A stretch of DNA of 64,000 nt, taken from the IMG/VR virus record IMGVR_UViG_3300027833_000001, positions 1 through 64,000 of that record; one strand, written 5' to 3'. This document shows positions 1,446 through 40,118 of the stretch, one piece after another; the first letter of the stretch is position 1; every line of letters starts with the position of its first letter. The position numbers were made by a program, and so were the translations under genes. The notes below the pieces were generated by a model. The model was not told where the DNA came from. It saw only the letters and a list, made by a program, of their open reading frames with translations, and made no database searches. Origin of the DNA: a virus.

Positions 1446-1913
1446 ATGACTGAATATTATGATATCGAAAGTGACGTTGGTCCTAATTTGGAATTAAATG
1501 ACGCACTACCAGAAATGGCAAAAAAGTCTGAAGAAGAGCGTTATCAAGATGAAAGAGTTCGGGTGCTACAAGAAGCACTAAGAGTTGATTATATAGAGAA
1601 GTTTGATATATATGCTAAACTTATTGTTACTCAGCGAGAACTAGCAGAGACTACAATACATAGAGACAAACTTCAAAATGTTAAAAACCTTTTGGATTTG
1701 AACAACAAAGCCCTCACAAAAGAAATTGTTGAATTGAAAGGTATAGCCAGAGACTTGAAAGCAAAAAAAGAAAAATTGCAACAAGCGGCTAAGAAGAAAA
1801 AAGAGTCTTTTGCACCCTCCGAATCTTATGTAGAAGAGGAAGTAGAAGTACAGAAACCCAAACGCGCCGTTGTAAAACGGACAAGAGCGAAGAAAGCAAA
1901 AGAAGAAGAATGA
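1446..1913 (+). CDS. Coiled-coil hypothetical protein with basic tail
   Basis: 155 aa, heptad-rich core, SD AGGA. Confidence 0.7.
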   Translation: MTEYYDIESDVGPNLELNDALPEMAKKSEEERYQDERVRVLQEALRVDYIEKFDIYAKLIVTQRELAETTIHRDKLQNVKNLLDLNNKALTKEIVELKGIARDLKAKKEKLQQAAKKKKESFAPSESYVEEEVEVQKPKRAVVKRTRAKKAKEEE

Positions 1914-3163
1914 AAAGATTTTCAACATTTCTAACCGAAGACGCAAATGGCAAAAACTTGCATTTGGAGCATCTCGAGGACGAAATTATTAATTCTGGAA
2001 TTGGCGGTGCTAGAGGCGCAGTCAACTTTCTTCGGTCATTAAGAGATATGATGGCTGGCAACTCACGTAGTTCCATTAACATGACTGTTAAATGGGATGG
2101 AGCTCCAGCTATTTTCGCGGGTATAGATCCTGCAGACGGTAAATTCTTTGTAGCTAAAAAGAGCGTGTTCAATAAGACACCTTTACTGTATAAGACTGCA
2201 AAAGAAATAGATTCCGATGCAAGATTACCCGCATCACTAAAACCCAAATTCAAGATTGCTCTCACAGAATTTAGTAAATTGGGTATCAAGAACGTCCTAC
2301 AGGGTGACTTGATGTATACGTCTGCCGATTTAGAAACGGACAAAATAGACGGTCAAACATATACAACATTTCAGCCCAACACAATCGTTTACGCAATTCC
2401 TAAAGGTTCATTTTTAGAGAGAAAGATGAAAGCCGCTAAGATCGGTGTAGTTTGGCACACTACATATACAGGAACGTCACTAGAAAACATGAAAGCATCA
2501 TTCGGTGCAGATACGAAGAGTCTTAGAAAACCTACGTCTATCTGGATGGATGATGCCACTTACAAAGATGAAAGTGGAACAGCCACATTTACTAAAGCAG
2601 AGACAGATCAAGTAACAGCTAAATTGTCTGAAGTTGGAAAAGCATTTGCCAAAATATCTTCTGCGGAATTAACAAAATTTTTAAGAATACAAGCATCAAT
2701 GGAAGGTAAATTTGTTGGCGCTAGTATAAAAACATATACAAATTCTAAAGTAAGAGTCGGTCAAGAAATTACTAATCCTAGTGAACACGCAAAAGGTTAC
2801 CTTACCTGGGTTGAAGAAAAATTCGACAAAGAAGCGGGAAAGGTTAAAACTGATAAAACGAAGAAAGCGATTGAGGACAAGAAGACAGCGACCCTCCGCG
2901 ATCTACGTAAGCTAACAGGCTTACTTGTAAACGTCATCATCTTCCAGAACTTACTAATATCTGCGAAGATGATGATAGTTTCCAAACTTAATAAGATAAA
3001 ACAATTAACTAACACATTTGTCAGAACTCCTAATGGATTTAAAGTAGTGAATCCTGAAGGATATGTTGCTATCGACAGAACATCTGGTCGGGCAGTAAAG
3101 CTAGTTGACCGAATGGAGTTTAGTTACAACAACTTCACCGCAATCAAGGCTTGGGACAGATAG
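1910..3163 (+). CDS. RNA-ligase-like covalent nucleotidyltransferase (DUF6267-like), probably head-packaged
   Basis: Ligase-superfamily-like motifs TVKWDG (K61), LQGD, PEGYV and AVKLV; N-terminus MKRFSTFLTE resembles the T4 capsid-targeting sequence. Confidence 0.6.
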   Translation: MKRFSTFLTEDANGKNLHLEHLEDEIINSGIGGARGAVNFLRSLRDMMAGNSRSSINMTVKWDGAPAIFAGIDPADGKFFVAKKSVFNKTPLLYKTAKEIDSDARLPASLKPKFKIALTEFSKLGIKNVLQGDLMYTSADLETDKIDGQTYTTFQPNTIVYAIPKGSFLERKMKAAKIGVVWHTTYTGTSLENMKASFGADTKSLRKPTSIWMDDATYKDESGTATFTKAETDQVTAKLSEVGKAFAKISSAELTKFLRIQASMEGKFVGASIKTYTNSKVRVGQEITNPSEHAKGYLTWVEEKFDKEAGKVKTDKTKKAIEDKKTATLRDLRKLTGLLVNVIIFQNLLISAKMMIVSKLNKIKQLTNTFVRTPNGFKVVNPEGYVAIDRTSGRAVKLVDRMEFSYNNFTAIKAWDR

Positions 3164-3176
3164 TTTATTTTTGTCT

Positions 3177-3184
3177 TATAAATA
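3177..3184 (+). promoter_or_regulatory. T4-type late promoter TATAAATA
   Basis: Exact gp55 consensus in the intergenic gap before 3221. Confidence 0.85.
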
Positions 3185-3220
3185 GTATATAGAATACTAA
3201 TTAGTAAGAGAATTTAAACC

Positions 3221-3856
3221 ATGAACCTTAGAACAATACACGAAGAACGAGAAAAGCGAATAGTTTTTGCTTTTGGTCGACTAAACCCTCCAACTGCTGG
3301 TCATAGCAAGTTAGTCGATAAAGTGAAGAGTGAAGCCCAGAAACGTAGGGCAGATCACAGAGTAATAGTGAGTCATTCTCAAGACAAGCATAAAAATCCT
3401 CTTACAGCACAAGATAAAATTACATACCTAAAAAGTATTCATCCTGGCACGAAATTCCAAGCCTCCTCTAAAGCACAACCACACTTTATTGCACATCTAA
3501 CAAAGATGAATAAAGAAGGATTTACCCATGTGGTAATGATAGCAGGTTCAGATAGAGTACAAGAGTTTCAAAAAATAGCAGATAAATACAATGGTAAAGA
3601 CTACAACTTTAAAGAGATAGCAATAGTATCTGCTGGCGAAAGAGACCCAGACGCTGAAGGTGTGACTGGAATTAGTGGTACTAAGATGAGATCATTTGTC
3701 AGTAACAATGATTTTACATCATTCAAGAAAGGACTGAATCAACGAGCATCACAAGCAAGTGCAAAGAAGCTATTTGATGCGGTACGTAAAGGTATGCAAC
3801 TCAAAGAGGGTGAAAGTCGCCCCTCTTTTTCAAATTTTTTAAGGGAAAGTAAATGA
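3221..3856 (+). CDS. HxGH-superfamily nucleotidyltransferase (phage cytidyltransferase / PPAT / NMNAT-like)
   Basis: FGRLNPPTAGH, KNPL, IAGSDR and ISGTKMR motifs. Confidence 0.8.
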   Translation: MNLRTIHEEREKRIVFAFGRLNPPTAGHSKLVDKVKSEAQKRRADHRVIVSHSQDKHKNPLTAQDKITYLKSIHPGTKFQASSKAQPHFIAHLTKMNKEGFTHVVMIAGSDRVQEFQKIADKYNGKDYNFKEIAIVSAGERDPDAEGVTGISGTKMRSFVSNNDFTSFKKGLNQRASQASAKKLFDAVRKGMQLKEGESRPSFSNFLRESK

Positions 3857-4296
3857 ACAGAGAAGCAGTTTTTGAGCAACTAAAAATCGATGAGGGAGTT
3901 GTGTATGAAATTTATAAAGACCATTTGGGCTACCCAACTTTCGGAGTTGGACACTTGGTCCTCGAGTCTGATCCAGAATTTGGACAAGCAGATGGCACAC
4001 CAGTCTCAGAAGAACGAGTTAGAGAATGCTTTGAACGTGACCTTGACACATCAATCTCAGAGTGTGTTGCACTATATAAAGCACAATTTAATACATGGCC
4101 GGGGACAGTACAGGAAGTCCTAGTAAACATGATGTTCAATATGGGCAGAACACGCCTAGGTAAGTTTCAGAACTTCCGTAAAGCACTAGAAGAGTGTGAT
4201 TGGAAACAAGCTGGCATCGAAGGTAGAGATTCTAGATGGCACGATCAAGTTACAAATCGTGCGGAAAGGTTAATGATAAAATTGGAAGAAACATGA
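3853..4296 (+). CDS. T4-type lysozyme (GH24)
   Basis: Catalytic E-x8-D-x5-T in IDEGVVYEIYKDHLGYPTFGVGH; NMMFNMG; SRWHDQVTNRAERL. Confidence 0.9.
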   Translation: MNREAVFEQLKIDEGVVYEIYKDHLGYPTFGVGHLVLESDPEFGQADGTPVSEERVRECFERDLDTSISECVALYKAQFNTWPGTVQEVLVNMMFNMGRTRLGKFQNFRKALEECDWKQAGIEGRDSRWHDQVTNRAERLMIKLEET

Positions 4297-4297
4297 G

Positions 4298-4756
4298 ATG
4301 AATTCTTGTGTTGTGGTAATAGACGCATGGAAGTATTGCTCACAAGAAGACTTAAACAAATTTCCGTGGTTATTAAAAGAAAATAAATTATTTGGATCAT
4401 TTTTAGACCTACAATTATCCAACATAAAACAAAAATATAATTATGATGTTATACACCAATGTGGAGGTCATCGACCAGAGCAAGTAATGGAAGAAATACA
4501 AACTAAAGACTTGGTTATAGAGGATTTAAGAGAAATACCTACATATGACTACTATTATTTTTGCGGATTTCATTTAGGCAGATGTTTAAACCAGTCTGTT
4601 AGAGTTTTGAATAAATCTAACTGTGGTATTGTATACAATTTAAGCCTGATATTTCCAGAAGACACATATGGTCACGTTATTGGTAAAAACTTTTCCAATA
4701 ATTATATGTATAGCTATAGCAAAGGTTTTGAAAAAATAACAATGGAGGAAGCATGA
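4298..4756 (+). CDS. Hypothetical protein, possible cysteine-hydrolase (isochorismatase-like) fold
   Basis: VVVIDAW near the N-terminus and FCGFHLGRC resemble the Asp and Cys catalytic motifs. Confidence 0.4.
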   Translation: MNSCVVVIDAWKYCSQEDLNKFPWLLKENKLFGSFLDLQLSNIKQKYNYDVIHQCGGHRPEQVMEEIQTKDLVIEDLREIPTYDYYYFCGFHLGRCLNQSVRVLNKSNCGIVYNLSLIFPEDTYGHVIGKNFSNNYMYSYSKGFEKITMEEA

Positions 4757-5118
4757 AACACGGATTATTAATAATAGCAACTTTACTTACACTGTCTGGT
4801 TGCGCCAACTTATTCTCAGATAGATTTGACAACGTAGAGTATGGTATGCTAGTACAACTTAATGTTGACTCAATTACTCAACGAACTGATTGTCCAATCA
4901 AACTGGATACATACAAGAAATCACTAGCACTCAAGATATACTCTGAAGGTACAATGAACGATACCAGTAAAGATATATACAATGAGATACATGGGTTAGT
5001 AGATGAATTCTACACAAGAGAAAACCCGTCTCCTGTATATTGCGGACTTAAATGGGATAACATACAAGACGCAACTACAAGAGCAATTGAACTTACAGGA
5101 TCACGCATTAAAAAATAA
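4753..5118 (+). CDS. Predicted lipoprotein
   Basis: Signal peptide ending in lipobox LSGC. Confidence 0.75.
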   Translation: MKHGLLIIATLLTLSGCANLFSDRFDNVEYGMLVQLNVDSITQRTDCPIKLDTYKKSLALKIYSEGTMNDTSKDIYNEIHGLVDEFYTRENPSPVYCGLKWDNIQDATTRAIELTGSRIKK

Positions 5119-5127
5119 CTTGGAGAC

Positions 5128-5355
5128 ATGACAATGCAAGAAGCAGAACACGAATTATTTGAGGAATACTCTCTCAAAATTACCCAATTACAAGAGTACC
5201 TGAGTACGAATGCTATTACCCGTAGCGAATATGATGAACTAGTAAACGATTTCTCTGATGTTGAAGCAATACGTGACAGCATCAAAGATGAGAAGTTGAA
5301 AATTCACGCAGAGAATTTAGTCTCAGCACTTACCAAGGTATTAGCTTTAGTCTAA
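5128..5355 (+). CDS. Small acidic helical hypothetical protein
   Basis: 75 aa ORF with SD GGAG. Confidence 0.65.
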   Translation: MTMQEAEHELFEEYSLKITQLQEYLSTNAITRSEYDELVNDFSDVEAIRDSIKDEKLKIHAENLVSALTKVLALV

Positions 5356-5356
5356 G

Positions 5357-5364
5357 TATAAATA
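5357..5364 (+). promoter_or_regulatory. T4-type late promoter TATAAATA
   Basis: Exact consensus 5 nt before the ATG at 5370. Confidence 0.85.
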
Positions 5365-5369
5365 GTCTT

Positions 5370-7196
5370 ATGAACAAAACATTCGTAGATTTTCTTGACC
5401 CGCGACCACTTGAAGAGGGTATAAATGACCCTGGAATTTTCAAGGCAGTTTTCCTTGCTGGAGGACCTGGCAGTGGTAAATCTTTTATTGTGGGACAAAC
5501 ATCCCTTCAGTCGTTTGGGCTAAAATTAATTAATAGCGATGACGCATTTGAAAGAGCATTAGCCAAAGTTGGGCTAGAAGCAACACCAGAAAACATTTAT
5601 TCTAGTAAAGGTCAGTCCATACGAGACAGAGCCAAGCTCCTCACTAAGATGAGACAAGAGCAATGGATTGATAGTAGGCTTGGTCTAGTAATTGATGGTA
5701 CTGGTAAAGACTTCACAAAAATTAATAACCAAGTAAATAAACTCAGATCAATTGGTTACGATGTTGCGATGATATTTGTCAACACTGACCTAGAAACAGC
5801 AAAAACAAGAAACCAATCAAGAGCCAGAACTCTTCCAGATAACGTAGTATCAGATATGTGGAATGATGTTCAGAAAAACATCGGTAAATTCCAAAACTTG
5901 TTTGGTAGATATATGTATATTGTCGATAACTCAGATGGTGCAAACTATCAGGGTGCTACCATGTCAATCTACAGAAGAATTGGTGCATGGACAAGAGAGC
6001 CAGTTGCAAATCATAGAGCGAGAGCCTGGGTAAGAAGCCAGAAAAAATTACGCGGAATCAAAGAAGAAGACATAGGCAGAACTCGCACAACGATGCGAAA
6101 TCGTCTTGGTAAGTCTTCAATGCAACTGAAAGCAGAAAAGCGCAGAGCAAAACTTACTATTAAAAACCCAAAGGCTCCTAAAGAACTGGGTAAATTAGAA
6201 GAAGCAGAACTTGATGAAGCACCGAGATGGATGCTTGATCCTCTAGCCAAGACAGTGTATAGACACCAGTATGCAGTAGCCGCAAAACTATTAAAACAGA
6301 TATACGATAAAAAGAAAAAAGAAGGTGGCGGCAGGACCAGACATGGTATTGAGTGGTATGCCCATAGTGTAGCTGGACAAATTTCAAACCGAGTTGATGC
6401 AAGAACTTTGGCTAATATGGTCAAAGAATCTTATAACGCAGATGTGCATCAATGGGGAACACCAGAAGGCACTCAGTTATATAAAGATATGACTCCTGGT
6501 CAAGGCGATGATGTATATAAAAAGAGCAACGCCGATGACGCAGTAACAGATGCTCCCAATGCATTCGTTTTCTCAGAAGTAGAAATACTTCAGATGGAAG
6601 ATGAAATTGGTATGATGAGTTTCGAAGATATGGTCGATCTTGGAATGTATGACGAAGATGAGTTGCTTGATTTCCAAGACATTGAAAACATTCCAGATGA
6701 TGGTGAATTGGATGATCTAGATTTAGACGAAGAAACACTTGATGAAGTATTATCTGTACAAGGTAGAATGAAGCGCAGATTTGCGGCTAGAAGAAACAGA
6801 CAGAAACTTAAAGTTGCTAGAATGAGAGCATCTAGAAGAGCCGCTGATCCAGCTAGAATCAAGAAGAGAGCGCAACGTGGTGCAAGAAACATAATCAAGC
6901 AGAGATTTGCTAGAGGTCGAGATGTAAGTAAAATGCCTCCACAAGAGAAAGCACGTATCGAAGGCATGGCAAAGAAGATGGCGCCACTCGTATCTCGTTT
7001 GGCTATTCGTATGATGCCACTCGTAAGAAAGAATGAATTACAAAGAATCAAATCTGGCGGTGGTGGAAAGAAGCAAGCCGCAAAGAAATTTAAAGTAACT
7101 AAAGGCGGTTCTGCTAGTAAGTATACTGCAAAGAAATTTAAAGTCAAAGCACCTAAAAAAGCCAAGAAAGCTAAAGCTCCAGCCAAAAAGAAGTAG
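5370..7196 (+). CDS. P-loop kinase (zeta-toxin/AAA_33/PNK-like) with long acidic and basic extensions, probably head-packaged
   Basis: FLAGGPGSGKS Walker A, INSDD, GLVIDGTG and RNQSRAR lid; N-terminus MNKTFVDFL..LEE; many (L/I/V)xE sites. Confidence 0.75.
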   Translation: MNKTFVDFLDPRPLEEGINDPGIFKAVFLAGGPGSGKSFIVGQTSLQSFGLKLINSDDAFERALAKVGLEATPENIYSSKGQSIRDRAKLLTKMRQEQWIDSRLGLVIDGTGKDFTKINNQVNKLRSIGYDVAMIFVNTDLETAKTRNQSRARTLPDNVVSDMWNDVQKNIGKFQNLFGRYMYIVDNSDGANYQGATMSIYRRIGAWTREPVANHRARAWVRSQKKLRGIKEEDIGRTRTTMRNRLGKSSMQLKAEKRRAKLTIKNPKAPKELGKLEEAELDEAPRWMLDPLAKTVYRHQYAVAAKLLKQIYDKKKKEGGGRTRHGIEWYAHSVAGQISNRVDARTLANMVKESYNADVHQWGTPEGTQLYKDMTPGQGDDVYKKSNADDAVTDAPNAFVFSEVEILQMEDEIGMMSFEDMVDLGMYDEDELLDFQDIENIPDDGELDDLDLDEETLDEVLSVQGRMKRRFAARRNRQKLKVARMRASRRAADPARIKKRAQRGARNIIKQRFARGRDVSKMPPQEKARIEGMAKKMAPLVSRLAIRMMPLVRKNELQRIKSGGGGKKQAAKKFKVTKGGSASKYTAKKFKVKAPKKAKKAKAPAKKK

Positions 7197-7203
7197 GATA
7201 AAA

Positions 7204-7683
7204 ATGATAACATTTTCAGAAGGTAATAAAAAAGGTTTGTGGGATAACATCCACGCAAAGAGAAAAAGAATTAAAGGCGGATCTGGCGAGAAGATGCGTA
7301 AGCCAGGAAGTGAGGGAGCACCATCTAAATCTGATTTAGAGAACTCTCGGACTGAAGAAGTTTGTTGCAGTGAATGCGAAGCAATGAACGAAGATTTAAT
7401 ATCAGAAGATATTGTAATTATGGAAGAAGGCGAGAAAAAGAAAGTTGCGCTAAATAAAGTTCAACGTGGTGGTTCAAAGAAATTTTACGTGTATGTCAAA
7501 AACGACAAAGGCAATGTAGTTAAAGTTTCATTTGGTGATCCAAACATGGAAATTAAACGAGATGACCCAAAAGCAAGAGCAAGTTTCAGAGCCAGACATG
7601 ACTGTGCAAACAAAAAAGACAGAACTAAAGCAGGATACTGGAGTTGTAGACAGTGGCGTGGTGGTGCGAAAGTCGAGGATTAA
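7204..7683 (+). CDS. Conserved T4-like phage protein (DUF6321-like C-terminal domain)
   Basis: KKFYVYVKN..KVSFGDP..SFRARHDC..AGYWSC recognised from T4-like marine phages. Confidence 0.6.
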   Translation: MITFSEGNKKGLWDNIHAKRKRIKGGSGEKMRKPGSEGAPSKSDLENSRTEEVCCSECEAMNEDLISEDIVIMEEGEKKKVALNKVQRGGSKKFYVYVKNDKGNVVKVSFGDPNMEIKRDDPKARASFRARHDCANKKDRTKAGYWSCRQWRGGAKVED

Positions 7684-7918
7684 AGAATGGTGGCTCAGAT
7701 TCTGGTTAGAAGAATATGAGTTGACTATTTTCTTTCCTGGCAAGACAACCATAATGCCCGATGGTGCAAGAATTACAGAGGGCGCACCTAAAACATGGCG
7801 CGTAGCTAAGATTAAAAAGCTATCTCCTAAAAATATTGTGTTCATAGATACCGACAAGAGAAAACATGAAATAAAGACGGTTGAACCAGTAGGATATAAT
7901 CTTACTAAAATATATTAG
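7658..7918 (+). CDS. Hypothetical protein (start uncertain; ORF open from 7532)
   Basis: Fills the gap to 7928; GTG starts overlap the end of the previous gene. Confidence 0.55.
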   Translation: MVVRKSRIKEWWLRFWLEEYELTIFFPGKTTIMPDGARITEGAPKTWRVAKIKKLSPKNIVFIDTDKRKHEIKTVEPVGYNLTKIY

Positions 7919-7927
7919 AGTTACATT

Positions 7928-9541
7928 ATGGCAGTAGACGTACTACTTTTTACGGGTATCTCCGCATATTCGTATGAAGTAACAAATATGAGTACCTCAC
8001 CTTCTTATGAAATGGCGATGCGAACATCAGGCACGTATCGAGTTGCCACCTACCTCAGAGAAACATATGATCTAAACGTAGAAGTTGTTGACTATCTACA
8101 CTCATGGACATATGAAGAACTAGTCGAAATCGTTGATAGTAGAGTAGACCGCAATACCAAACTAGTTGGTGTTGGAGGCATCTTCTATTTAAACACTCCC
8201 AATATAGCAAGTATATTTCAATACGTCAAGGAAAACTATGACGTAGTAACAGTGGCTGGCAGCCAAGGATTGTGGTCTATTGCATCCATACCCAACATAG
8301 ACTATGCCATAGTAGGATACGGAGAACTGGGTATCAGCGCAGTACTTGCTGGTAATCCAATATACTCAGAGAAATCAGTTTATCCTGGTGGACCAACGGT
8401 AAAAGTTGTTGAGTGTATGGACACAAAAGAGTACAATGCATTCCCTTGGAAAAATATTGGAATTGGATATGAAAAGCGAGACTTTGTAAGACCAGAAGAG
8501 ACACTATCATTTGAGACTTCAAGAGGATGTCGTTTTCAATGTGCATATTGTAACTTTCCTATTCTTGGTGTGAAAGATGACCACACAAGATCAGCCGAAG
8601 ACTTTGAACGCGATCTCAAGCGCAACTATGACACATGGGGTACAACAGATTACATTGTTACAGATGATACTTTTAATGATTACACAGACAAGATAACAAA
8701 GTACGCTGATGTAGTACAAGATTTATCATTTGAGGTTGACTTTACAGGATATATCCGTGCTGATTTAATGACACAGAGAAAGGGTGATTTAGAACAACTT
8801 GCTAGGATGAGATTCAATAGTCACTTATATGGAATTGAGTCAACAAACAGAGAATCAGCTAAAGCAATGGGTAAAGGTGGCGATCCTAAAAAGATTCTTG
8901 ATGGCATATTAGAAGCAAAAGAATATATGTTAAAGCAGACTGGGTACTATAGAGGTGAGATGAGTTTCATATGGGGGCTGCCGTACGAGACAAGAGAAAC
9001 GCTTGACTGGACATTTGATTGGATAGATAAAAATTGGCAGGGAGAAGCAATGTCAATGTTTGATCTCAGTATACCAATGGCAGGTCCACACGCTATTATT
9101 CGTAGCAATATACTCTCCACAAACCTAGATAAATACAATTATAGAAAGGCTCAACCAATAGAAATATCTAACATTGATGTTCAACTACAACAAATTTTAG
9201 ATGACCCTAATGTTGATGATTTCAATAAGAATAGAATGCGTTTGATGAAACCGGATCCAAATGATCCATTGTATCAGATACACACGGTACTATGGAAAAA
9301 CGAACACTGGGATATGATTAGTGCGTGGTTAGGATGTCAAACAGAGTTATATGGCAACAAACGATACTGGGATAGAGGCATTCCAATCTTCAATCAAGCC
9401 AACTGGACATCGGTAGGATACAAAAAAACTGACTTATTGAAGTCATTTAGGGAACTTGGACTGACAATGCACCCACCTATAGAAAAAAGAAGAGCGGTTA
9501 TTGAAGAATACAAGCAGAATAAACTTTCCTGGGTATCTTAG
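7928..9541 (+). CDS. Radical SAM enzyme with B12-binding-like N-terminal region (class B-like architecture)
   Basis: ETSRGCRFQCAYC, VTDDTF, YGIES, IDYAIVGYGE and FIWGLPYET. Confidence 0.85.
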   Translation: MAVDVLLFTGISAYSYEVTNMSTSPSYEMAMRTSGTYRVATYLRETYDLNVEVVDYLHSWTYEELVEIVDSRVDRNTKLVGVGGIFYLNTPNIASIFQYVKENYDVVTVAGSQGLWSIASIPNIDYAIVGYGELGISAVLAGNPIYSEKSVYPGGPTVKVVECMDTKEYNAFPWKNIGIGYEKRDFVRPEETLSFETSRGCRFQCAYCNFPILGVKDDHTRSAEDFERDLKRNYDTWGTTDYIVTDDTFNDYTDKITKYADVVQDLSFEVDFTGYIRADLMTQRKGDLEQLARMRFNSHLYGIESTNRESAKAMGKGGDPKKILDGILEAKEYMLKQTGYYRGEMSFIWGLPYETRETLDWTFDWIDKNWQGEAMSMFDLSIPMAGPHAIIRSNILSTNLDKYNYRKAQPIEISNIDVQLQQILDDPNVDDFNKNRMRLMKPDPNDPLYQIHTVLWKNEHWDMISAWLGCQTELYGNKRYWDRGIPIFNQANWTSVGYKKTDLLKSFRELGLTMHPPIEKRRAVIEEYKQNKLSWVS

Positions 9542-9544
9542 ATT

Positions 9545-9552
9545 TATAAATA
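9545..9552 (+). promoter_or_regulatory. T4-type late promoter TATAAATA
   Basis: Exact consensus upstream of SD AGGAG and the ATG at 9585. Confidence 0.85.
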
Positions 9553-9584
9553 TGATTACAAATAAAATCTTTAGGAGATAACCG

Positions 9585-11678
9585 ATGTCAATTGAAAGAC
9601 GCATTAAAGATATTATGTCGGGCGATAACCAACTGCAAGAAGCTGATCAATCCAGGCGTCTAGATATGTTGGTTCGTCAGGGCTTAATGTCTCCTGCTAA
9701 GTTACCTATTTTAAAAAGAGGTTTAGCAAAATTGAATGATGGTAAGGCTATGGCACCAAATGAAAGAGATGCCGTAAAGTCGTTACTTAATAGTTTCATG
9801 TTTATAGTGCTTGGAGATGATGCAGTCTTTAACAGGGCAAAACAGAATACTCAAAAGAACAAATACCAGCAAGAAGATGTCCAAGAGTATGTAGAAGAAT
9901 CTTGTTCTTGCTGTGATAACAAAATCGAATCTGATGGAACTTGTGGTTGTGACGAATCTTGTGACCATTGTGGTGGACAACATAACGTATCAGAAGAATT
10001 TAAAGCACATGATATGTGGGATCCTAAAACTGGTGAAAAGAAATTAGCCAAAACAGAGAAAGAGCATCTAGCATTAAAAGATAAGGGTTGGGAACATGAA
10101 GATCCTAATCAGAAAGAAGAGCAAAAAGATTTCAATGAAGCCATCGATCCTGAAGAAGACGAAGCACTGACTGATGAAGAAATGGAAGCAATTCTCAGTG
10201 ATGACTCCATTGATACTGATTTGAGTGAAGATTACAAAACTGGTCACAAATCATACACAGATGCAGTCAATACTGCATTCTCACATCATGCCAAAAGAGA
10301 TAACATTCACTCTACACCAGATCACAAGGCAGATCATATTGGATTAAATTCTAAGAAGCCAGGTAGTGGTAAAACAACTCGCGTGAACATTCCTGCTACA
10401 CACAAAGAAACTGGCAAGAAACACATGATTCATATGCAAGTACACAATAAAGGTGGATCACACCCGTACGAGTTAAACACATACTCTAGTAAACTGCCAC
10501 GTAAAGATCAGAAAGAATCAGTTGATGAAGCTGTGTTCGATAGAGATGCTAATTCTAATTCATTTAACAGACTAAAATCAAAAACTACTAAAGTAAAAAC
10601 AGGCGAGAAGCGTAACCCAAAAACTGGTAAAATGGAACCAGTAATGGGAACGACTACTACGCCACAGGGGAACCCATCTATGAGCATTAAAAAAGAACAC
10701 GTTGGTCCATCACCACTGGATGTATGGAAAACACATCAAGATAAATTGTCAGAAGGTGGTTTCAAGACCATGGCTACTGATGCCTCAGAAACTGCTAGAT
10801 TAGCCAAAAAGAAAAAAGTTGGCGACATGAATCCTGCTGAAAAATCAGCTAATGATTCAAGACGCAAAGAGTACAACGATTATCAAAAATCTAAGCGCAA
10901 CGAAGAAGTTGAAGAACAGGGCGAGACTCTGCAAGAGGGCGGAGAAGTTCAATCAGCATCTGGCGCATCAATGAATAAGAAAAATCAAATGGACAAACCA
11001 GTTGGTTATGGTATTCCTGGTGTTAAAAAGCCTAAGAAAGATACGCTTGTAGCTAATCCTAAATCAGGAAGAGTTCGCAAAGTAACTAAGAATCGTGCCG
11101 CTTCAGCCGTTAAGAAAGGCTTTGTATATGCAGAAGAGTGGACTACGGAAGACCTTGAAGCACTGTTTGAAATGGACTACAAAGAAAAGTTCCAAGCAAT
11201 GCTTAAAAAGACTGGTAAATCACTTGCAGATATGTCTGACGAAGATAAGAAGAAATTCTTTGGTGCAGTAGATGCCGCTCATTCAGCTAAGAACGAAGAC
11301 TTTGAAGAATTTACTATGGACTCCTTCAATGAGTTTACTGCTGAACAAGAACAGTTAGCAATTGAAGAAGGTGCCGCAGAAGATGCTAGAAGAGATGCTC
11401 GGAAAGATAGCAGAGGTTTAGCACCTACTAAGCAAGATAAACCAGATGTATCACATAATGCAAAGACGGACAAGAGCGTAGAGCATATTGTTCCTCAGTT
11501 AAGAAAAGCAATGTCTATTGGAAAGAAAGTAACTTTTCAAGACGGAAAATCCCATACAATTAGCAAGGGACATGCCGCTAAATTCTTATCTAAATATATG
11601 ACTGGCAAACCAGCAGACAAAGAAAGAATGCAGAGTCACGGTCATACATCACACGAACATTTTAAAAAACACGTATAA
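9585..11678 (+). CDS. Large late protein, probable head-internal multi-module protein
   Basis: Late promoter; alternating acidic linkers and small basic modules separated by (L/V/I)xE sites; Cys cluster. Confidence 0.6.
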   Translation: MSIERRIKDIMSGDNQLQEADQSRRLDMLVRQGLMSPAKLPILKRGLAKLNDGKAMAPNERDAVKSLLNSFMFIVLGDDAVFNRAKQNTQKNKYQQEDVQEYVEESCSCCDNKIESDGTCGCDESCDHCGGQHNVSEEFKAHDMWDPKTGEKKLAKTEKEHLALKDKGWEHEDPNQKEEQKDFNEAIDPEEDEALTDEEMEAILSDDSIDTDLSEDYKTGHKSYTDAVNTAFSHHAKRDNIHSTPDHKADHIGLNSKKPGSGKTTRVNIPATHKETGKKHMIHMQVHNKGGSHPYELNTYSSKLPRKDQKESVDEAVFDRDANSNSFNRLKSKTTKVKTGEKRNPKTGKMEPVMGTTTTPQGNPSMSIKKEHVGPSPLDVWKTHQDKLSEGGFKTMATDASETARLAKKKKVGDMNPAEKSANDSRRKEYNDYQKSKRNEEVEEQGETLQEGGEVQSASGASMNKKNQMDKPVGYGIPGVKKPKKDTLVANPKSGRVRKVTKNRAASAVKKGFVYAEEWTTEDLEALFEMDYKEKFQAMLKKTGKSLADMSDEDKKKFFGAVDAAHSAKNEDFEEFTMDSFNEFTAEQEQLAIEEGAAEDARRDARKDSRGLAPTKQDKPDVSHNAKTDKSVEHIVPQLRKAMSIGKKVTFQDGKSHTISKGHAAKFLSKYMTGKPADKERMQSHGHTSHEHFKKHV

Positions 11679-18478: not shown

Positions 18479-20278
18479 ATGGCAAAGCAAGAATATTTAG
18501 GACTACAGATAGATCCATCGCGGGATAGTCTATTCGATAAACTGGGACTGGCGCGACTGAAAGAAAGTTATATGCGGGATGACGAAGATAGTCCTCAACA
18601 GAGATTTGCCTATGTAAGTAAGCAGTTCGCTAGTAATCCAGAACACGCGCAAAGATTGTATGAATATAGCAGTAAGCATTGGCTATCATACTCTACACCA
18701 ATTCTATCTTATGGTAAATCAAAGAAAGGTATGCCAATATCATGCTTTTTAAATTACATCAACGACACTGCGGAGGGATTGGTTGAGAATTTATCGGAAA
18801 CAAACTGGCTTAGTATGCTCGGCGGTGGTGTGGGGATCGGTTTTGGTATCCGTGCTGCCGATGACAAATCTGTTGGCGTCATGCCTCATCTTAAAACCTA
18901 CGACTCAAGTAGTCTCGCATATCGACAAGGAAAAACTAGACGAGGAAGTTATGCCGCATACCTCGATATCAGTCATCCAGACATTACCATGTTTTTGGAA
19001 ATGCGTAAAGGCACCGGTGATCAGAATGTTCGATGTTTGAATCTGCACCACGGTGTCAATGTAACAGATCGATTTATGGATGTCATAGAACGATGTATGT
19101 TGGACCCCGAGGCTGATGATGGTTGGAATCTATGTGACCCACACACGGGTGAAGTCAGAGAGACAGTATCAGCAAAAGCATTATGGCAAAGAATATTAGA
19201 AATGCGAATGGAAACTGGTGAACCCTACATTCACTACATCGATACTAGTAACAGACATTTGAATCAGTTTCAAAAAGATTTGGGACTAAAGATACACCAG
19301 AGTAATCTATGCTCAGAGATTATCTTACCTACAAACAAAGACAGAACAGCCGTATGCTGTTTATCATCTGTCAACTTAGAACACTATGACGCTTGGAGTA
19401 AGGATAGCTTATTTCTAAGAGACATGGCTGAAATGTTGGACAATGTATTGCAATTCTTTATTGATAATGCACCAGCTGAAGTGAGTCGAGCAGTATTTTC
19501 GGCAACACAAGAGCGTAGTATTGGCATAGGTGCCTTAGGCTTTCACGCTTACTTACAGAAGAAAGGACTACCATGGGAAAGCGCACTAACAACTGGTGCT
19601 AATCTCAGGATGTTCAAACTAATAAGGAGTAGATTAGATGAAGCAAACATTCAACTTGGCACGGAACGAGGTGAAGCTATTGATGCAAGAGGCACCGGAA
19701 GACGGTTTAGTCATGTTATGGCTATTGCTCCCAATGCTAGTAGTAGCATTATTATGGGAAACACTTCTCCGTCTATTGAACCCTATCGTGCAAATGCTTA
19801 CAGACAGGATACCATCAGTGGAGCGTTTCTCAATAAGAATAAGCATTTGGATATCCTTATTAAGGATAAAATTAAAGATGATCCTAAGCTGGACTATGAA
19901 GAAATTTGGTCGTCAATAATTGCCAATGATGGATCAGCACAGCACCTCAAATGTCTTGATGAAAATGAGAAGTTAGTGTATAAGACTGCAATGGAGATAG
20001 ACCAGAGATGGGTGATTGAACACGCATCAAAACGTCAAGCATTTATCGACCAAGCACAGTCACTTAACCTGTTCTTTAGACCTGATGTAAATATCAAGTA
20101 CCTTCATGCAGTACATTTCCTAGCATGGAAACAAGGACTGAAGACATTATATTATTGCCGTTCAGAGAAACTTGGTAAAGCCGATAAGGTAGCCAATCGA
20201 ATTGAGCGCAGAATTACGAAAGAACTTGACATGACCGCACTAGCAAATGACGAAGAATGTCTGGCATGTGAAGGTTGA
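18479..20278 (+). CDS. nrdA: Ribonucleotide reductase class I alpha subunit (short, no ATP cone)
   Basis: PISCFL, QSNLCSEI, AVCCL, IAPNASSS, IDQAQSLN, KTLYY and C-terminal CLAC. Confidence 0.95.
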   Translation: MAKQEYLGLQIDPSRDSLFDKLGLARLKESYMRDDEDSPQQRFAYVSKQFASNPEHAQRLYEYSSKHWLSYSTPILSYGKSKKGMPISCFLNYINDTAEGLVENLSETNWLSMLGGGVGIGFGIRAADDKSVGVMPHLKTYDSSSLAYRQGKTRRGSYAAYLDISHPDITMFLEMRKGTGDQNVRCLNLHHGVNVTDRFMDVIERCMLDPEADDGWNLCDPHTGEVRETVSAKALWQRILEMRMETGEPYIHYIDTSNRHLNQFQKDLGLKIHQSNLCSEIILPTNKDRTAVCCLSSVNLEHYDAWSKDSLFLRDMAEMLDNVLQFFIDNAPAEVSRAVFSATQERSIGIGALGFHAYLQKKGLPWESALTTGANLRMFKLIRSRLDEANIQLGTERGEAIDARGTGRRFSHVMAIAPNASSSIIMGNTSPSIEPYRANAYRQDTISGAFLNKNKHLDILIKDKIKDDPKLDYEEIWSSIIANDGSAQHLKCLDENEKLVYKTAMEIDQRWVIEHASKRQAFIDQAQSLNLFFRPDVNIKYLHAVHFLAWKQGLKTLYYCRSEKLGKADKVANRIERRITKELDMTALANDEECLACEG

Positions 20279-25718: not shown

Positions 25719-26042
25719 ATGATGAATTTTAGTGGTTCTTTACGCTATGATATGAACGGTCGTAAGCGTAAAGCATACAAGAAGAACAACCCAACTGTTA
25801 AGAAAGCAAAGCCCATCAAATCTACTAAAGAATTAGTACAGAATCCCATACAACAGCGTATTGAAGATGAGCGTAAGAAGTATCCATCTATGAACGATAT
25901 GCACGGCACTGGTGGTCAGAAGAATCACCTATGGGAAAAAGAGAAGCTGGATATCAGTCAAGGCTACACTGTAGCACCTGCATATAACAAGGGTGCTTAT
26001 CAAGTGATAGGCAAATCAAGCATCAAGGACATTGGCAAATGA
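25719..26042 (+). CDS. Conserved T4-like basic protein
   Basis: YTVAPAYNKGAYQVI motif; SD GAGG. Confidence 0.65.
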   Translation: MMNFSGSLRYDMNGRKRKAYKKNNPTVKKAKPIKSTKELVQNPIQQRIEDERKKYPSMNDMHGTGGQKNHLWEKEKLDISQGYTVAPAYNKGAYQVIGKSSIKDIGK

Positions 26043-26455
26043 TAGTAGGATTTACCTGCTCGGCATTTGATCTGCTTCATGCAGGACACGTACAAATGTT
26101 AAGAGATGCAAAACAACAATGTGAATTTCTGGTGTGTGGATTACAAGTTGATCCTCGTATCGACAGACCAGAGAAGAATAGCCCAATCCAATCCGTAGTG
26201 GAGAGGTATACTCAATTGAAGGCTATTCGCTATGTGGATGAAATAATTCCATATAGTACTGAAAAAGACTTAGAGGACATATTATCCATGTATTCATTGG
26301 ATGTAAGAATTCTAGGGGAAGAGTATAGAGAAAAGGACTTTACAGGTAAAGATATCTGCAAACAGCGTGATATCACCCTGTATTTTAATAAGCGGGATCA
26401 CCGCTTTTCAACCAGCGACCTACGTAGTCGCGTATGTACAGAAGGAATTATATAA
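26039..26455 (+). CDS. tagD: Glycerol-3-phosphate cytidylyltransferase-like
   Basis: AFDLLHAGH, RYVDEII and R..STS. Confidence 0.8.
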   Translation: MIVGFTCSAFDLLHAGHVQMLRDAKQQCEFLVCGLQVDPRIDRPEKNSPIQSVVERYTQLKAIRYVDEIIPYSTEKDLEDILSMYSLDVRILGEEYREKDFTGKDICKQRDITLYFNKRDHRFSTSDLRSRVCTEGII

Positions 26456-36590: not shown

Positions 36591-36724
36591 CCAAGCAGGG
36601 TGATCCGGGGTATGGGATTGGATTCCAACCGTATGGTCTTACAGGGGCATATGCATCGACCAGTGTTTTGACTGGTTAATGGTGGAGAAATTTGCCCAGA
36701 ATTTTTTTTGTGGAGAGAGAACCG

Positions 36725-37825
36725 ATGAAGAAGAACAAGGCTTTAGTAAACGTACACGCACTAGGTGATACAAAACAGTTCACCCCTAAAGATGTGGAAA
36801 CGTATAACCAAACGTGGGATACACAGCGAGAACTACGACCCGAGATATTCGGTGATGAGTGCGTTGGTGGTCTTCGATGGAGTACCACTCTACTGATCCC
36901 TATGGATAAGATTAACCCTAGAATTGATACTGTAGATAAGATACAGGGTGCAGTTCGATCAGGGTTAAATCCAGCTTCACTTGCTATCACTGCATCTATT
37001 GTACAGGGTGGATGGGATCTCCGTGAGTTAGCTATATGTGTTCAGAGAGATACTACTGATAGTCCATATGATTTTATTATAAGAGAAGGGTGTACACGAT
37101 ATCTTTCACTTGCTGGACTTGAGTTTAAGAATGTTATATGTGAAGTCTATGATCATGTCAATCCAGCAATTAATCCCGATTACTTCTCCGTCTATATGAA
37201 TTACTATGGGCAGCCACGTGGGAAGCAACAAGCGGCTGATTTACAATTGTTCATATCTTCAGAGATTACCTCGCAAGGTTATGATCTGAAGTCAATGTCG
37301 CATAAAGAGATTATGGATGTTACAGATGGAATCTTCACCCTTCTCAATCAAGACGTTACTCGGAAAGTAAAGAATGAACTTCGATATGATCTGATGACTG
37401 GTGCGGGGATTCGTCCATACGAGACTTTGGATAAGAAAGGATGTGATGCGCGATTAGAACCATTGAATAAAGAGGATGATAATTATGTGTATATATCCAT
37501 GGGATCTGATCCCGACAACCTCAGATTCTTGACTCGATACGTAAGAAATGAGCCAGAGTCTGAGAAGCATAAGATGCTCCGCTTTGTACCTTTTAAAGGA
37601 AAACTCTCTGTCGAGAAGTCTGAGGATGATTACTATGATCTAGCGGATGCTGGCGCAACTATGGTTGCTACGCTTCGCGCTATTGTGAACATTGCAAGTA
37701 GAATAGATGATACGACTGGTATCTTCCCGCAACTACCCTCTTTATGGGATAAGTACGAAAAGGGTAAGTTGATTACGATTGCACCAGATACCAACCTAAA
37801 AGAAATGGTTGACTCTCGTGGTTAA
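36725..37825 (+). CDS. Hypothetical protein, possible ParB/Srx-like domain
   Basis: SIVQGGW..AICV..FIIREGCTRYLSL resembles the ParB G-x-x-R motif. Confidence 0.5.
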   Translation: MKKNKALVNVHALGDTKQFTPKDVETYNQTWDTQRELRPEIFGDECVGGLRWSTTLLIPMDKINPRIDTVDKIQGAVRSGLNPASLAITASIVQGGWDLRELAICVQRDTTDSPYDFIIREGCTRYLSLAGLEFKNVICEVYDHVNPAINPDYFSVYMNYYGQPRGKQQAADLQLFISSEITSQGYDLKSMSHKEIMDVTDGIFTLLNQDVTRKVKNELRYDLMTGAGIRPYETLDKKGCDARLEPLNKEDDNYVYISMGSDPDNLRFLTRYVRNEPESEKHKMLRFVPFKGKLSVEKSEDDYYDLADAGATMVATLRAIVNIASRIDDTTGIFPQLPSLWDKYEKGKLITIAPDTNLKEMVDSRG

Positions 37826-38432: not shown

Positions 38433-38925
38433 TTGTATGGCACCCGATGTGGTGTCAATGAAGGAAGAATATATTGAAGAGTTACAATTAAAACTTGTTG
38501 CGGCGCGCCAAGATGTAACTCTTGCTAAGATGGGTGACATCCTGAAGAAACATAATCCCAGTGAACCAGAATTGTTTATTGATTTCTCTTGCCCTGGCAA
38601 ATTAATTGGCGTCTACATTATAGGGCATATGGATGGAAGCATAGCAGATATTGGACAGGGTAGAATCATGAGCCGTGTTTCGTTGAAGCGCCAGTTTCTA
38701 ATGCAGAAGCAACGTAAGCTAGATAAAACAAAAGACTATCGAGTAGCGGAACAGATTGTCAATTACGACCCTGACCCAGAACAGTGGTGGGTACAGTACA
38801 TTCCATTCTATGGTCTTACTGCTAAAGATGAAGCAAGAGCATATGAAGAGAGAATTCACCAGAGATATATTGTAGAAGATAACGCACCAATGTTTGCGTC
38901 ACTACATATGGTAGGTGTTGGATGA
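38410..38925 (+). CDS. Hypothetical protein, possible divergent GIY-YIG
   Basis: GVYII..DIGQG..SR..ARAYEE. Confidence 0.45.
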   Translation: MKNSLPTDCMAPDVVSMKEEYIEELQLKLVAARQDVTLAKMGDILKKHNPSEPELFIDFSCPGKLIGVYIIGHMDGSIADIGQGRIMSRVSLKRQFLMQKQRKLDKTKDYRVAEQIVNYDPDPEQWWVQYIPFYGLTAKDEARAYEERIHQRYIVEDNAPMFASLHMVGVG

Positions 38926-38996
38926 TATCAGCTAAAGTAATGAGACAGTTAGGTGCTACCCATGCAGGTCACCTATCATTTAAGAGGAGAGAGAAT

Positions 38997-40118
38997 ATGA
39001 TATTTAAATTACCCACGTTATACAAGAGAGATTCAAAAGGCAAGATACGTGAATTAACAATTGAGTGGCAATCCGACGAGCCTGCTACTAGGTCCATTGC
39101 TGGAATAAAAGATGGCAAACTTGTTATGTCTGGTTGGAATAAATCAGAAGCAAAGAATGAGGGTAGAGCCAATGCAACTACCGCTGTCGAACAAGCAGAG
39201 AAAGAAGCTAAGGCTGATTGGGATAAGAAAGTTGAGAAAGAGTACTTTGAAGATATTACTCAAATTGATTCCTATGATAAGTTCAAACCACAACTAGCAA
39301 ATGACTATACAAAGAAGCCACAGTCTAGTGGCATTAGTCAACCTAAGTTAGATGGTATCAGATGTATTGCGAGAAAAGATGGACTCTATACAAGACAGGG
39401 TAAAGACATTACCACTTGTGATCATATCTTCAATGCACTGAAGCCTTTCTTTGAGTTACACCCAGATGCAATTCTAGATGGTGAATTATACAATCACGAA
39501 CTAAAAGATGACTTCAACAAAATTACAAGTCTAGTTCGTAAAGTAAAACCTACAAAGGGTGAGGAGCTTGAATGTGCTTTACTTGTTGAGTATCATGTAT
39601 ATGATATGTCTGGCACTTCACTGTATTGGAAAGAACTGGCATTCTGGGATAGAATCACAATCATCAAAGCGATGGCATGGGGCTTAGTTTGGAAGCACCC
39701 TGTTGTAGTTGTTGATACTCAAAAATGTGACAACCAAGAAGAACTTGATGCTTTGTATTCTAAGTACACCGAACAAGGTTACGAAGGACAAATGGTCCGT
39801 AATGATTCTTTATATGAAAACAAAAGAAGTCACAACCTTCTCAAGCGAAAAGAGTTTATTACTGAAGAGTTCGATGTAGTAGAAGTATTAGAAGGATCTG
39901 GAAACTGGGCAGGATATGCCAAACACTTTCAACTAGAGTTGGGTGATGGTAGAACTTTCCATAGTGGTGTTAGAGGCAACCAAGCAATCTTAAAGGAATT
40001 GCTCAATCAGCCTGTCAAACCAAATTGGGTTACTGTTAGATACTTTGAGAAAACTCCTGATGGAGTTCCAAGGTTCCCTGTCGTTATAGATTGGGGAACT
40101 GGTAACAGAGTAGACTAA
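38997..40118 (+). CDS. lig: ATP-dependent DNA ligase
   Basis: QPKLDGIR, LDGELY, YHVYD, YEGQMVR, LLKRK and PRFP. Confidence 0.93.
   Translation: MIFKLPTLYKRDSKGKIRELTIEWQSDEPATRSIAGIKDGKLVMSGWNKSEAKNEGRANATTAVEQAEKEAKADWDKKVEKEYFEDITQIDSYDKFKPQLANDYTKKPQSSGISQPKLDGIRCIARKDGLYTRQGKDITTCDHIFNALKPFFELHPDAILDGELYNHELKDDFNKITSLVRKVKPTKGEELECALLVEYHVYDMSGTSLYWKELAFWDRITIIKAMAWGLVWKHPVVVVDTQKCDNQEELDALYSKYTEQGYEGQMVRNDSLYENKRSHNLLKRKEFITEEFDVVEVLEGSGNWAGYAKHFQLELGDGRTFHSGVRGNQAILKELLNQPVKPNWVTVRYFEKTPDGVPRFPVVIDWGTGNRVD

Follow-up and report, generated by a model that had tools for sequence, protein, structure and literature searches.

Bacteriophage T4 delivers internal proteins (IPI, IPII and IPIII) into the cell along with its DNA, and its Alt protein is a known injected enzyme. 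The repair enzymes of T4 are made after infection and are not packaged. Loading needs no more than the first ten residues of the T4 capsid-targeting sequence (CTS); targeting depends on positions 4 and 7 and processing on positions 8 and 10, and CTS fusions reach the infected cell (review, PMC9026906). As read from the T4 record, ipII and ipIII start MKTYQEFIAE, and the gp23 maturation site is FGSFLTE/A (the slash marks the cut). The present study concerns a 64,000-nt stretch of DNA (the window) from a marine T4-like myophage; it makes up the first 64 kb of IMGVR_UViG_3300027833_000001, a virus record that is complete at 165,127 bp and has terminal repeats. Three of its open reading frames (ORFs), named here by their first nucleotide, encode basic enzymes that bear CTS-like peptides (tags): ORF 1910, a DUF6267 protein with a ligase-like predicted fold; ORF 3221, a nucleotidyltransferase; and ORF 5370, a P-loop kinase. 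Packaging of these proteins by means of a T4-type leader is, in our judgement, probable. The fuller explanation, in which packaged and injected basic enzymes join nucleic-acid ends, has about an even chance of being right. The genes and their tags are as follows.

1910–3163, + strand: ORF 1910, DUF6267 protein of 417 residues, isoelectric point (pI) 9.7 (Pfam PF19782, 4e-100)
1910–1939, + strand: its capsid-targeting-like leader MKRFSTFLTE, ten residues with a gp21-type L-x-E end (predicted local distance difference test score, pLDDT, under 50 over residues 1–12)
3221–3856, + strand: ORF 3221, (H/T)xGH adenylyltransferase-like enzyme of 211 residues, pI 10.1 (PF01467; phrog_3041, 7e-67)
3824–3847, + strand: its C-terminal tag copy SFSNFLRE, followed by SK (low-confidence helix; conserved in stand-alone homologues)
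5370–7196, + strand: ORF 5370, P-loop kinase with a tail, 608 residues, pI 9.9 (Zeta_toxin, AAA_33; phrog_12810, phrog_505)
5370–5417, + strand: its sixteen-residue leader MNKTFVDFLDPRPLEE, directly before the domain start GINDP (from homologue comparison)

All three tagged proteins thus fall within pI 9.7–10.1. An earlier note on this DNA had pointed to T4-CTS-like tags at their ends, and the termini are indeed as it read them: ORF 1910 starts MKRFSTFLTE, ORF 3221 runs from MNLRTIHEE to SFSNFLRESK, and ORF 5370 starts with MNKTFVDFLDPRPLEE. The description holds. The tags resemble the T4 CTS and, by comparison of homologues, behave as detachable leaders. ORF 1910 has F4, F7, L8 and E10 at the positions where T4 has Y4, F7, I8 and E10. 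The pattern [FY]xxF[LI] occurs 37 times in the 52,651 residues of the 212 ORFs of the phage; near an N-terminus (first 14 residues) it is confined to ORFs 1910 and 5370, and near a C-terminus (last 14) to ORF 3221. Taken alone, this terminal count is near chance (about 1.5 expected at N-termini). A chance origin of the tag is excluded because the tag is conserved in homologues. All but about 8 of the 120 closest DUF6267 homologues keep M-x-x-[FL]-x-x-[FY]-[LI]-x-E, and a strict version of the tag is present once among the 212 ORFs, in ORF 1910. Among 118 diverse DUF6267 representatives, the strict tag is found in 35, while 23 begin at the conserved N-x-H-x-E-H domain start; the regular expression misses variants (for example, the MEKSFKDFVPLEE type), so tag percentages are lower bounds.

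The other two families show the same motif in other settings. Kinase homologues carry MIKFKRFIEE, MKKFKKFISE or MEKSFKDFVPLEE before G-[VI]-N-D-P, some start MLEEGVNDP, and the MNKTFVDFLDPRPLEE leader of ORF 5370 is a longer form of these. Stand-alone nucleotidyltransferase relatives have short untagged N-termini and almost always end with R-x-S-F-x-x-F-[LI]-x-E plus a few residues. Relatives of 288 residues, in which the nucleotidyltransferase is joined to DUF6321, have G-MKDFKTFLAE-D between the domains, at the same position as the C-terminal tag of ORF 3221. Junctions of kinase and DUF6267 polyproteins read NEAFEEFLDE-GVN and GKTFTDFITE-QKN. A leader that is modelled as disordered, stands outside the domain and is missing from some orthologues has the look of a targeting peptide. 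The simplest reading is a motif with two roles, a peptide that would dock to the prohead core and a protease site that would separate polyproteins; the C-terminal SFSNFLRESK of ORF 3221 would be such a polyprotein junction.

The genome has a gp21-type prohead protease gene (PF03420, E 8.5e-42; genome positions 126846–127298) and a gp23 gene, both identified by search, while the gp18, gp19, gp22 and gp68 genes were assigned by position only. At the T4 gp68 position (genome 126037–126399), between the positional gp67 gene and gp21, an ORF reads MKTFRQFQEE, which is CTS-like, from its fifth codon.

Virion evidence comes from cyanophages. The relevant passages of three reports record nucleotidyltransferase homologues, detected by mass spectrometry, in virions purified on cesium chloride (CsCl): SSM1_190 of S-SM1 (PMC3037559), gp154 of S-CREM2 (PMC10665884) and ORF91 of S-SCSM1 (PMC9602691). 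In the genome records, their N-termini read MKKFSAFLNE, MKNFSSFLTE and MKSFLQFLKE, respectively. The DUF6267 protein of S-SM1 (SSM1_189) is untagged and is not flagged as a virion protein, and SSM1_191 and SSM1_192 are flagged; this is one natural control and yields no statistic. In the S-SM1 gene-cluster table (PMC3037559, supplementary file 3), the coordinate column is one row off in the higher cluster numbers, and rows were therefore mapped via GenBank cluster numbers; SSM1_191 and SSM1_192 are flagged under either reading of the shifted table. The S-SCSM1 protein ORF93 (a 69-residue DUF3008 protein, 36627–36836), which is virion-detected, ends TFKEFLEYIE, a C-terminal copy of the tag. In the passages concerned, the authors of PMC9602691 and PMC10665884 had already proposed virion carriage of NMNAT-like proteins while conceding contamination; neither a loading signal nor DUF6267 is mentioned in those passages or in those of PMC3037559. 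The loading of the virion, as claimed by the earlier note, thus gains support from published proteomes for tag-bearing nucleotidyltransferase homologues, and for that protein only. Its statement that no characterised example exists needs amending, as the same parts of the three reports describe NMNAT-like or cytidylyltransferase proteins in cyanophage virions and T4 Alt is injected.

Two of the three tagged genes follow an octamer motif that the earlier note had placed upstream of them, and it was found there.

3177–3184, + strand: late promoter TATAAATA, 37 nt before ORF 3221
5357–5364, + strand: late promoter TATAAATA, 5 nt before the ATG of ORF 5370

Genome-wide, 23 of the 34 copies of TATAAATA lie at most 80 nt upstream of the start of a same-strand ORF, and copies precede gp23 and the genes assigned by position to gp18, gp19 and gp22. 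This placement identifies TATAAATA as the late promoter of the phage. At ORF 5370 and at three other ORFs (genome 82875, 89034 and 159302), the gap between the end of TATAAATA and the ATG is just 5 to 6 nt. In T4, late transcripts begin about 6 nt downstream of the promoter; with a start at the same distance, the late mRNAs of ORF 5370 and the three others would be leaderless or nearly so.

ORF 1910 belongs to PHROG 455, which, like Pfam DUF6267, is a family without an assigned function, and a full-text literature search found no paper mentioning DUF6267. Its AlphaFold model, for which an alignment of 106 sequences (34–58% identity) was supplied, has a mean pLDDT of 91.9 and drops below 50 at residues 1–12 only. 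RNA ligases head the matches to this model in an exhaustive structure aligner (VIA), with Naegleria NgrRnl (5COT) at Z 8.2 and a root-mean-square deviation of 3.8 over 187 aligned residues, followed by the Trl1 domain (6N0T, Z 7.5), T4 Rnl2 (Z 7.3 for 2HVQ, and 7.1), T4 Rnl1 (9DO4, Z 6.8) and REL1 (Z 6.6). DNA ligases appear at Z 5.6–6.2. At least 14 ligase entries stand among the top 45 rows, spanning residues 12–410, interspersed with helical proteins that match the insert at residues 227–362. Foldseek with the whole model against the PDB gave no match below 1e-3, with ligases scattered in the weak rows. The comparison with Rnl1 and Rnl2 that the earlier note had called for thus gave moderate matches in VIA, but no significant ones with Foldseek or profile alignment. 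A relation between DUF6267 and ligases at the level of sequence was tried and rejected: no ligase Pfam matched ORF 1910, phmmer and profile searches against PDB sequences returned spurious matches only, and hhalign of DUF6267 against T4 Rnl2 and against the phage's own DNA ligase was not significant (probabilities below 1%), a local and likewise non-significant hhalign match falling on the EGYV of T4 Rnl2.

The ligase-type motifs noticed earlier are all present, in order and conserved: KWDG (residues 61–64), LQGD (130–133), EGYV (383–386) and VKL (396–398). Two of these stretches are located as follows.

2090–2101, + strand: motif I, KWDG, with the candidate nucleotidyl-accepting K61, in a loop between strands 56–61 and 67–72
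3056–3112, + strand: motifs IV and V (EGYV ... VKLVDR), from conservation

In an alignment of 106 sequences at 34–58% identity, K61, D63, G64, D133, F154, E383, G384 and K397 are invariant or at least 90% conserved, and D400 and R401 are invariant or nearly so. The order of the nucleotidyltransferase motifs (I, III, IIIa, IV, V) is thus kept in DUF6267, motif V having one lysine instead of two. A helical insert of 135 residues (227–362) separates motifs IIIa and IV, and an OB domain is absent. From the order of the motifs and the position of the loop between two strands, K61 is a candidate counterpart of the catalytic lysine. A ligase-superfamily, RNA-ligase-like fold of DUF6267 is moderately supported by the model, and DUF6267 is likely to be an active ligase-type enzyme.

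The calls for the other two enzymes stand as first made. ORF 3221 has the motifs TAGH (residues 25–28) and ISGTKMR (151–157) and scores 24.5 bits with PF01467 (cut-off 21), which agrees with a nucleotidyltransferase. Foldseek aligns its model with NadD, PPAT, NMNAT and FAD synthetase (2e-6, probability 1.0), no substrate class being preferred. ORF 5370 has the P-loop GGPGSGKS (residues 31–38) within a kinase domain of about residues 17–232, and its scores exceed the cut-offs of Zeta_toxin (36.4 bits vs 22.3) and AAA_33 (36 vs 27), in line with a polynucleotide kinase- or zeta-like P-loop. After this domain come an acidic stretch and a lysine-rich tail of net charge about +40, which looks DNA-binding-like, and L/I-x-E sites occur at residues 14, 230, 276 and 281. 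The catalytic residues of the nucleotidyltransferase and of the kinase are strongly conserved, as in DUF6267. No useful match came from profile searches in which the alignments of the kinase and the nucleotidyltransferase were run against PDB sequences. The kinase domain is weakly similar (26% identity, E 9e-6) to part of a protein of the cyanophage P-SS2 (18959–19396), a siphovirus protein annotated as minor head or head-morphogenesis.

Adjacency and natural fusions link these genes functionally, as had been proposed. The DUF6267 gene directly neighbours that of the nucleotidyltransferase in Syn1 and S-SM1 and lies near it in Melnitz and HTVC008M, and at least 9 of 29 long representatives are fusions of the two, in both orders. 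One kinase-DUF6267 fusion was found, besides many kinase-nucleotidyltransferase-DUF5824 fusions. In HTVC008M, the order is tagged ORF, DUF6267, small basic protein, kinase, nucleotidyltransferase and DUF5824-like protein; this is the gene set of the window, where a lysis cassette is inserted. The three genes do not spread equally. Phage records hold 17 kinases, 404 DUF6267 proteins and 564 nucleotidyltransferases, and nearly all cyanophages with the DUF6267-nucleotidyltransferase pair lack the kinase. Given this rarity, the conserved unit is the pair. The co-occurrence of the three genes, a check named in the earlier note, therefore holds for the pair and extends to the kinase in a minority of phages. 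The nucleotidyltransferase partner is a core gene of cyanomyoviruses, and DUF6267 is among the most widespread uncharacterised proteins of ocean phages, with at least 8,000 clusters at 90% identity and 2,567 representatives at 50%.

Taken together, these features suggest the following scheme. The leaders of the three basic enzymes would bind the assembling prohead core, and the gp21-type protease would cut after the leader glutamate. The mature enzymes would remain inside the head alongside the DNA and be injected together with it, in the manner of T4 internal proteins and Alt. DUF6267, a putative divergent ligase-superfamily enzyme, would form a lysyl-nucleotide adduct on K61; together with the NMNAT/PPAT-like adenylyltransferase it would make up the core pair, and the kinase with its DNA-binding-like tail would be an accessory of the pelagiphage/methylophage branch. 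During the first minutes of infection, the set would most likely join broken nucleic-acid ends or re-activate them; the kinase would phosphorylate 5′-OH ends, and the adenylyl donor would be supplied or regenerated by the adenylyltransferase. We give nucleic-acid end joining as the job slightly less than an even chance, and hold its tRNA-repair version to be doubtful; the substrate of the packaged enzymes is something we only infer.

Several observations weigh against this scheme. Virion proteome support is limited to nucleotidyltransferase homologues of other phages, and CsCl-purified virions may carry abundant late proteins as contaminants, as the proteome papers' authors themselves remark in the passages concerned. 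Untagged orthologues exist (DUF6267 of Syn1 and S-SM1), so virion delivery is not essential to function, and the enzymes evidently work too if they are synthesised in the infected cell. In the leader of ORF 5370, a shifted variant, the second residue past FL is D instead of E. The clear tag of the nucleotidyltransferase is C-terminal, for which the sole T4 precedent is the C-terminal trimming of Alt, and a cut at that site would not free the enzyme of it. No TATAAATA was found upstream of ORF 1910 or ORF 1446, leaving ORF 1910 without a late promoter of its own. Structural Z scores of 7–8 are modest, and sequence and profile searches give no link between DUF6267 and ligases. The rarity of the kinase weakens the repair reading, and the known relatives of the nucleotidyltransferase act on small molecules. 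Finally, Pfam and PHROG scans of ORFs 1446–9541 found no phosphoesterase or other 3′-end-healing family, the rest of the genome lying outside this search. Of the injected end-healing and ligation function put forward in the earlier note, the linkage of a ligase fold with a kinase thus stands; the function itself is one of several readings, with a rare kinase, no 3′-end healer seen in the module and a partner of cofactor type.

That cofactor-type partner is the basis of the alternative that survives best, in which the packaged enzymes would supply nucleotide cofactors and not repair. They would be NadR-like or CoA-synthase-like and, as infection begins, raise the level of nicotinamide adenine dinucleotide (NAD+) or of a related dinucleotide, which DUF6267 would use as adenylyl donor. 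NadR combines a nicotinamide mononucleotide (NMN) adenylyltransferase with a ribosylnicotinamide kinase, and CoA synthase combines PPAT with dephospho-CoA kinase. The kinase-nucleotidyltransferase fusions share the domain order of NadR, and homologues are labelled NMN/NaMN adenylyltransferase, dephospho-CoA kinase or shikimate kinase. The best Foldseek matches of ORF 3221 (NadD, PPAT, NMNAT and FAD synthetase) fit this role, to which the proteome papers' authors also lean in the parts concerned, and DUF6267 has its tightest fusion partner in the nucleotidyltransferase. However, the fold gives no substrate discrimination, the NadR model TIGR01526 scores 16.4 bits on ORF 3221 against a cut-off of 341, and nearly all cyanophages with the pair are without the kinase. 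Furthermore, no NAD-binding Ia-type domain was seen in DUF6267, and a few dozen injected molecules would need a substrate pool (NMN or nicotinamide riboside). Cofactor supply accounts for the partner and the kinase but not for the ligase fold, and we consider it unlikely.

The ligase fold is the starting point of another alternative, that marine T4-like phages have in DUF6267 a DNA ligase that went unrecognised, used in replication and repair, and that the tag is a secondary addition for pre-loading in some lineages. According to a review, g30 homologues were not found in cyanomyoviruses and distant ones may be overlooked (PMC2984593). In our six-frame searches, Melnitz, Syn1, S-SM1 and S-CREM2 showed no ligase domain of the ATP or NAD type, cyanophage DUF6267 lies between gp41/mazG and gp61/nrdA, and DNA ligases do figure in the structural list (Z 5.6–6.2). 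Yet RNA ligases outscore them there, DUF6267 lacks the OB domain, and host LigA can serve T4-type replication (PMC2984593). The phage of the window, moreover, also has a canonical ATP-dependent DNA ligase (PF01068 with the OB domain PF14743) at 38922–40118. This rules out DUF6267 as the sole ligase of the phage and, there being two ligase-type genes, means that the two are not simply redundant. We therefore rate the missing-ligase explanation as rather improbable. A related possibility, quite unlikely in our view, is that DUF6267 and the adenylyltransferase form a self-contained, head-carried strand-sealing system that acts before phage gene expression and that, in the many relatives without a canonical ligase, DUF6267 is also the missing DNA ligase of cyanomyoviruses. 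DUF6267 would then arrive charged, or be charged from a dinucleotide made by its partner, and would seal nicks or ends of the incoming genome or of host or phage RNA.

The tag itself could be read as a cytoplasmic docking peptide that holds the enzymes together or to another partner such as the replisome clamp, the virion detections being carry-over of abundant late proteins. The motif does occur at N-termini, C-termini and internal linkers, as docking motifs do, the genes sit in the cyanophage replication module, and possible contamination is conceded by the proteome papers' authors in the passages cited above. Against this, the four positions of the T4 CTS tested genetically agree with the motif, as does the T4 gp23 cleavage site, and the motif always ends [LI]-x-E right before a folded domain. 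The tagged protein is present in three independent proteomes, the S-SM1 neighbours 191 and 192 are also flagged, and the positional gp68 gene reads MKTFRQFQEE from its fifth codon. The DNA polymerase of the phage ends ASLMDLFV, a different, clamp-type motif, and a clamp-binding motif was for this reason set aside as the principal explanation. Docking in the cytoplasm is thus very unlikely. That the proteins are loaded but act in the prohead (on DNA while it is packaged, say, or as parts of the core) or are degraded in it, without delivery, is hardly credible: T4 core proteins that have similar sites are for the most part broken down by gp21 and the kinase protein has several L/I-x-E sites, but the catalytic residues are strongly conserved, the mature head would not be expected to hold nucleotide substrates, and fusions to the T4 CTS do reach the cell that is infected (PMC9026906).

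The closest cultured relatives of ORF 1910 are from Methylophilales phages Melnitz (67% amino-acid identity), followed at about 40% identity by Pelagibacter phage HTVC008M and several hundred cyanomyoviruses. The phage collection searched held no DNA near-identical to the window, and a protein-atlas look-up returned viral clusters without names only. Two further ORFs flank the tagged genes.

1446–1913, + strand: charged ORF of 155 residues upstream of ORF 1910, with no family match
7204–7683, + strand: basic protein of 159 residues (phrog_16028, phrog_7595)

The stop of the first overlaps the start codon of ORF 1910 (ATGA), and the two are probably co-transcribed. The C-terminal part of the second matches a DUF5824-type end that is fused to the nucleotidyltransferase in Melnitz, whose gene 18 is PF01467 plus PF19141, and neighbours it in HTVC008M. 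The surroundings, a late region in the earlier note, are mixed (lysis, nucleotide metabolism, radical SAM) and not a structural late region. Between the tagged genes, at 3853–5355, lies a cassette transcribed late, made up of an e-type lysozyme whose ORF overlaps the stop of the nucleotidyltransferase, a 152-residue ORF without assigned role, a lipoprotein with an LSGC lipobox and a 75-residue ORF. In T4, ipIII and ipII adjoin gene e. A B12-binding-type radical SAM enzyme directly follows the module (7928–9541); its best NCBIfam matches, of P-methyltransferase and lipid-ladder types, are far under their cut-offs. At 9545–11678, TATAAATA is followed by a highly charged, low-complexity protein of 697 residues without family match, which may be a further head-internal protein. 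At 26039–26455, the window encodes a second, unrelated cytidylyltransferase-like protein (138 residues, PF01467 1.5e-12, LHAGH motif), which has no tag.

The ligase fold, the T4-type tag and the protease sites open tests of three matters: the entry of enzymes into virions, the role of NMNAT-like proteins and the ligase of cyanomyoviruses. They also suggest T4-type heads as a general vehicle for enzyme delivery that could be read from a ten-residue leader.

Among known systems, the ATP-dependent RNA ligases (NgrRnl/Rnl5, 5COT; Trl1, 6N0T; T4 Rnl2, 2HVQ/1S68; T4 Rnl1, 9DO4; T. brucei REL1, 1XDN) resemble DUF6267 in fold, with 170–200 aligned residues at Z 6.6–8.2. Unlike them, DUF6267 shows no sequence similarity and has the 135-residue insert, a conserved N-terminal H-x-E-H and a single motif V lysine. 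ORF 3221 is like NadD/NMNAT, PPAT (CoaD) and FAD synthetase in its Rossmann-like fold (TM 0.5–0.67) and motifs, but it is only 11–18% identical, reaches no curated family cut-off bar that of the general PF01467 and bears a capsid-targeting-like peptide. T4 Pnkp with Rnl1, and the ligase-kinase-phosphodiesterase Trl1, likewise link a ligase-fold enzyme to a P-loop kinase, as in the kinase-DUF6267 fusion; in contrast to these, no 3′-end-healing domain was found in the module and most DUF6267 phages are without the kinase.

The virion NMNAT-like or cytidylyltransferase proteins of S-SM1, S-SCSM1, S-CREM2 and S-CBWM1 belong to the family of ORF 3221, and the three examined share the leader; the passages concerned of the published reports describe no loading mechanism and do not connect these proteins with DUF6267. 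With T4 IPI, IPII, IPIII and Alt, the phage shares a ten-residue leader (aromatic 4, Phe 7, Leu/Ile 8, Glu 10), a gp21-type protease, late promoters (before ORFs 3221 and 5370) and basic proteins as the likely cargo, and Alt is an enzyme cargo, as would be the case here. The predicted cargo of the phage differs: it consists of an adenylyltransferase, a kinase and an enzyme with a ligase fold, all without relation to the internal proteins or Alt, and the tag is found at C-termini and between polyprotein domains as well. On this comparison, the phage system would be a variant of the T4 internal-protein system, partly anticipated by the proteomic reports.

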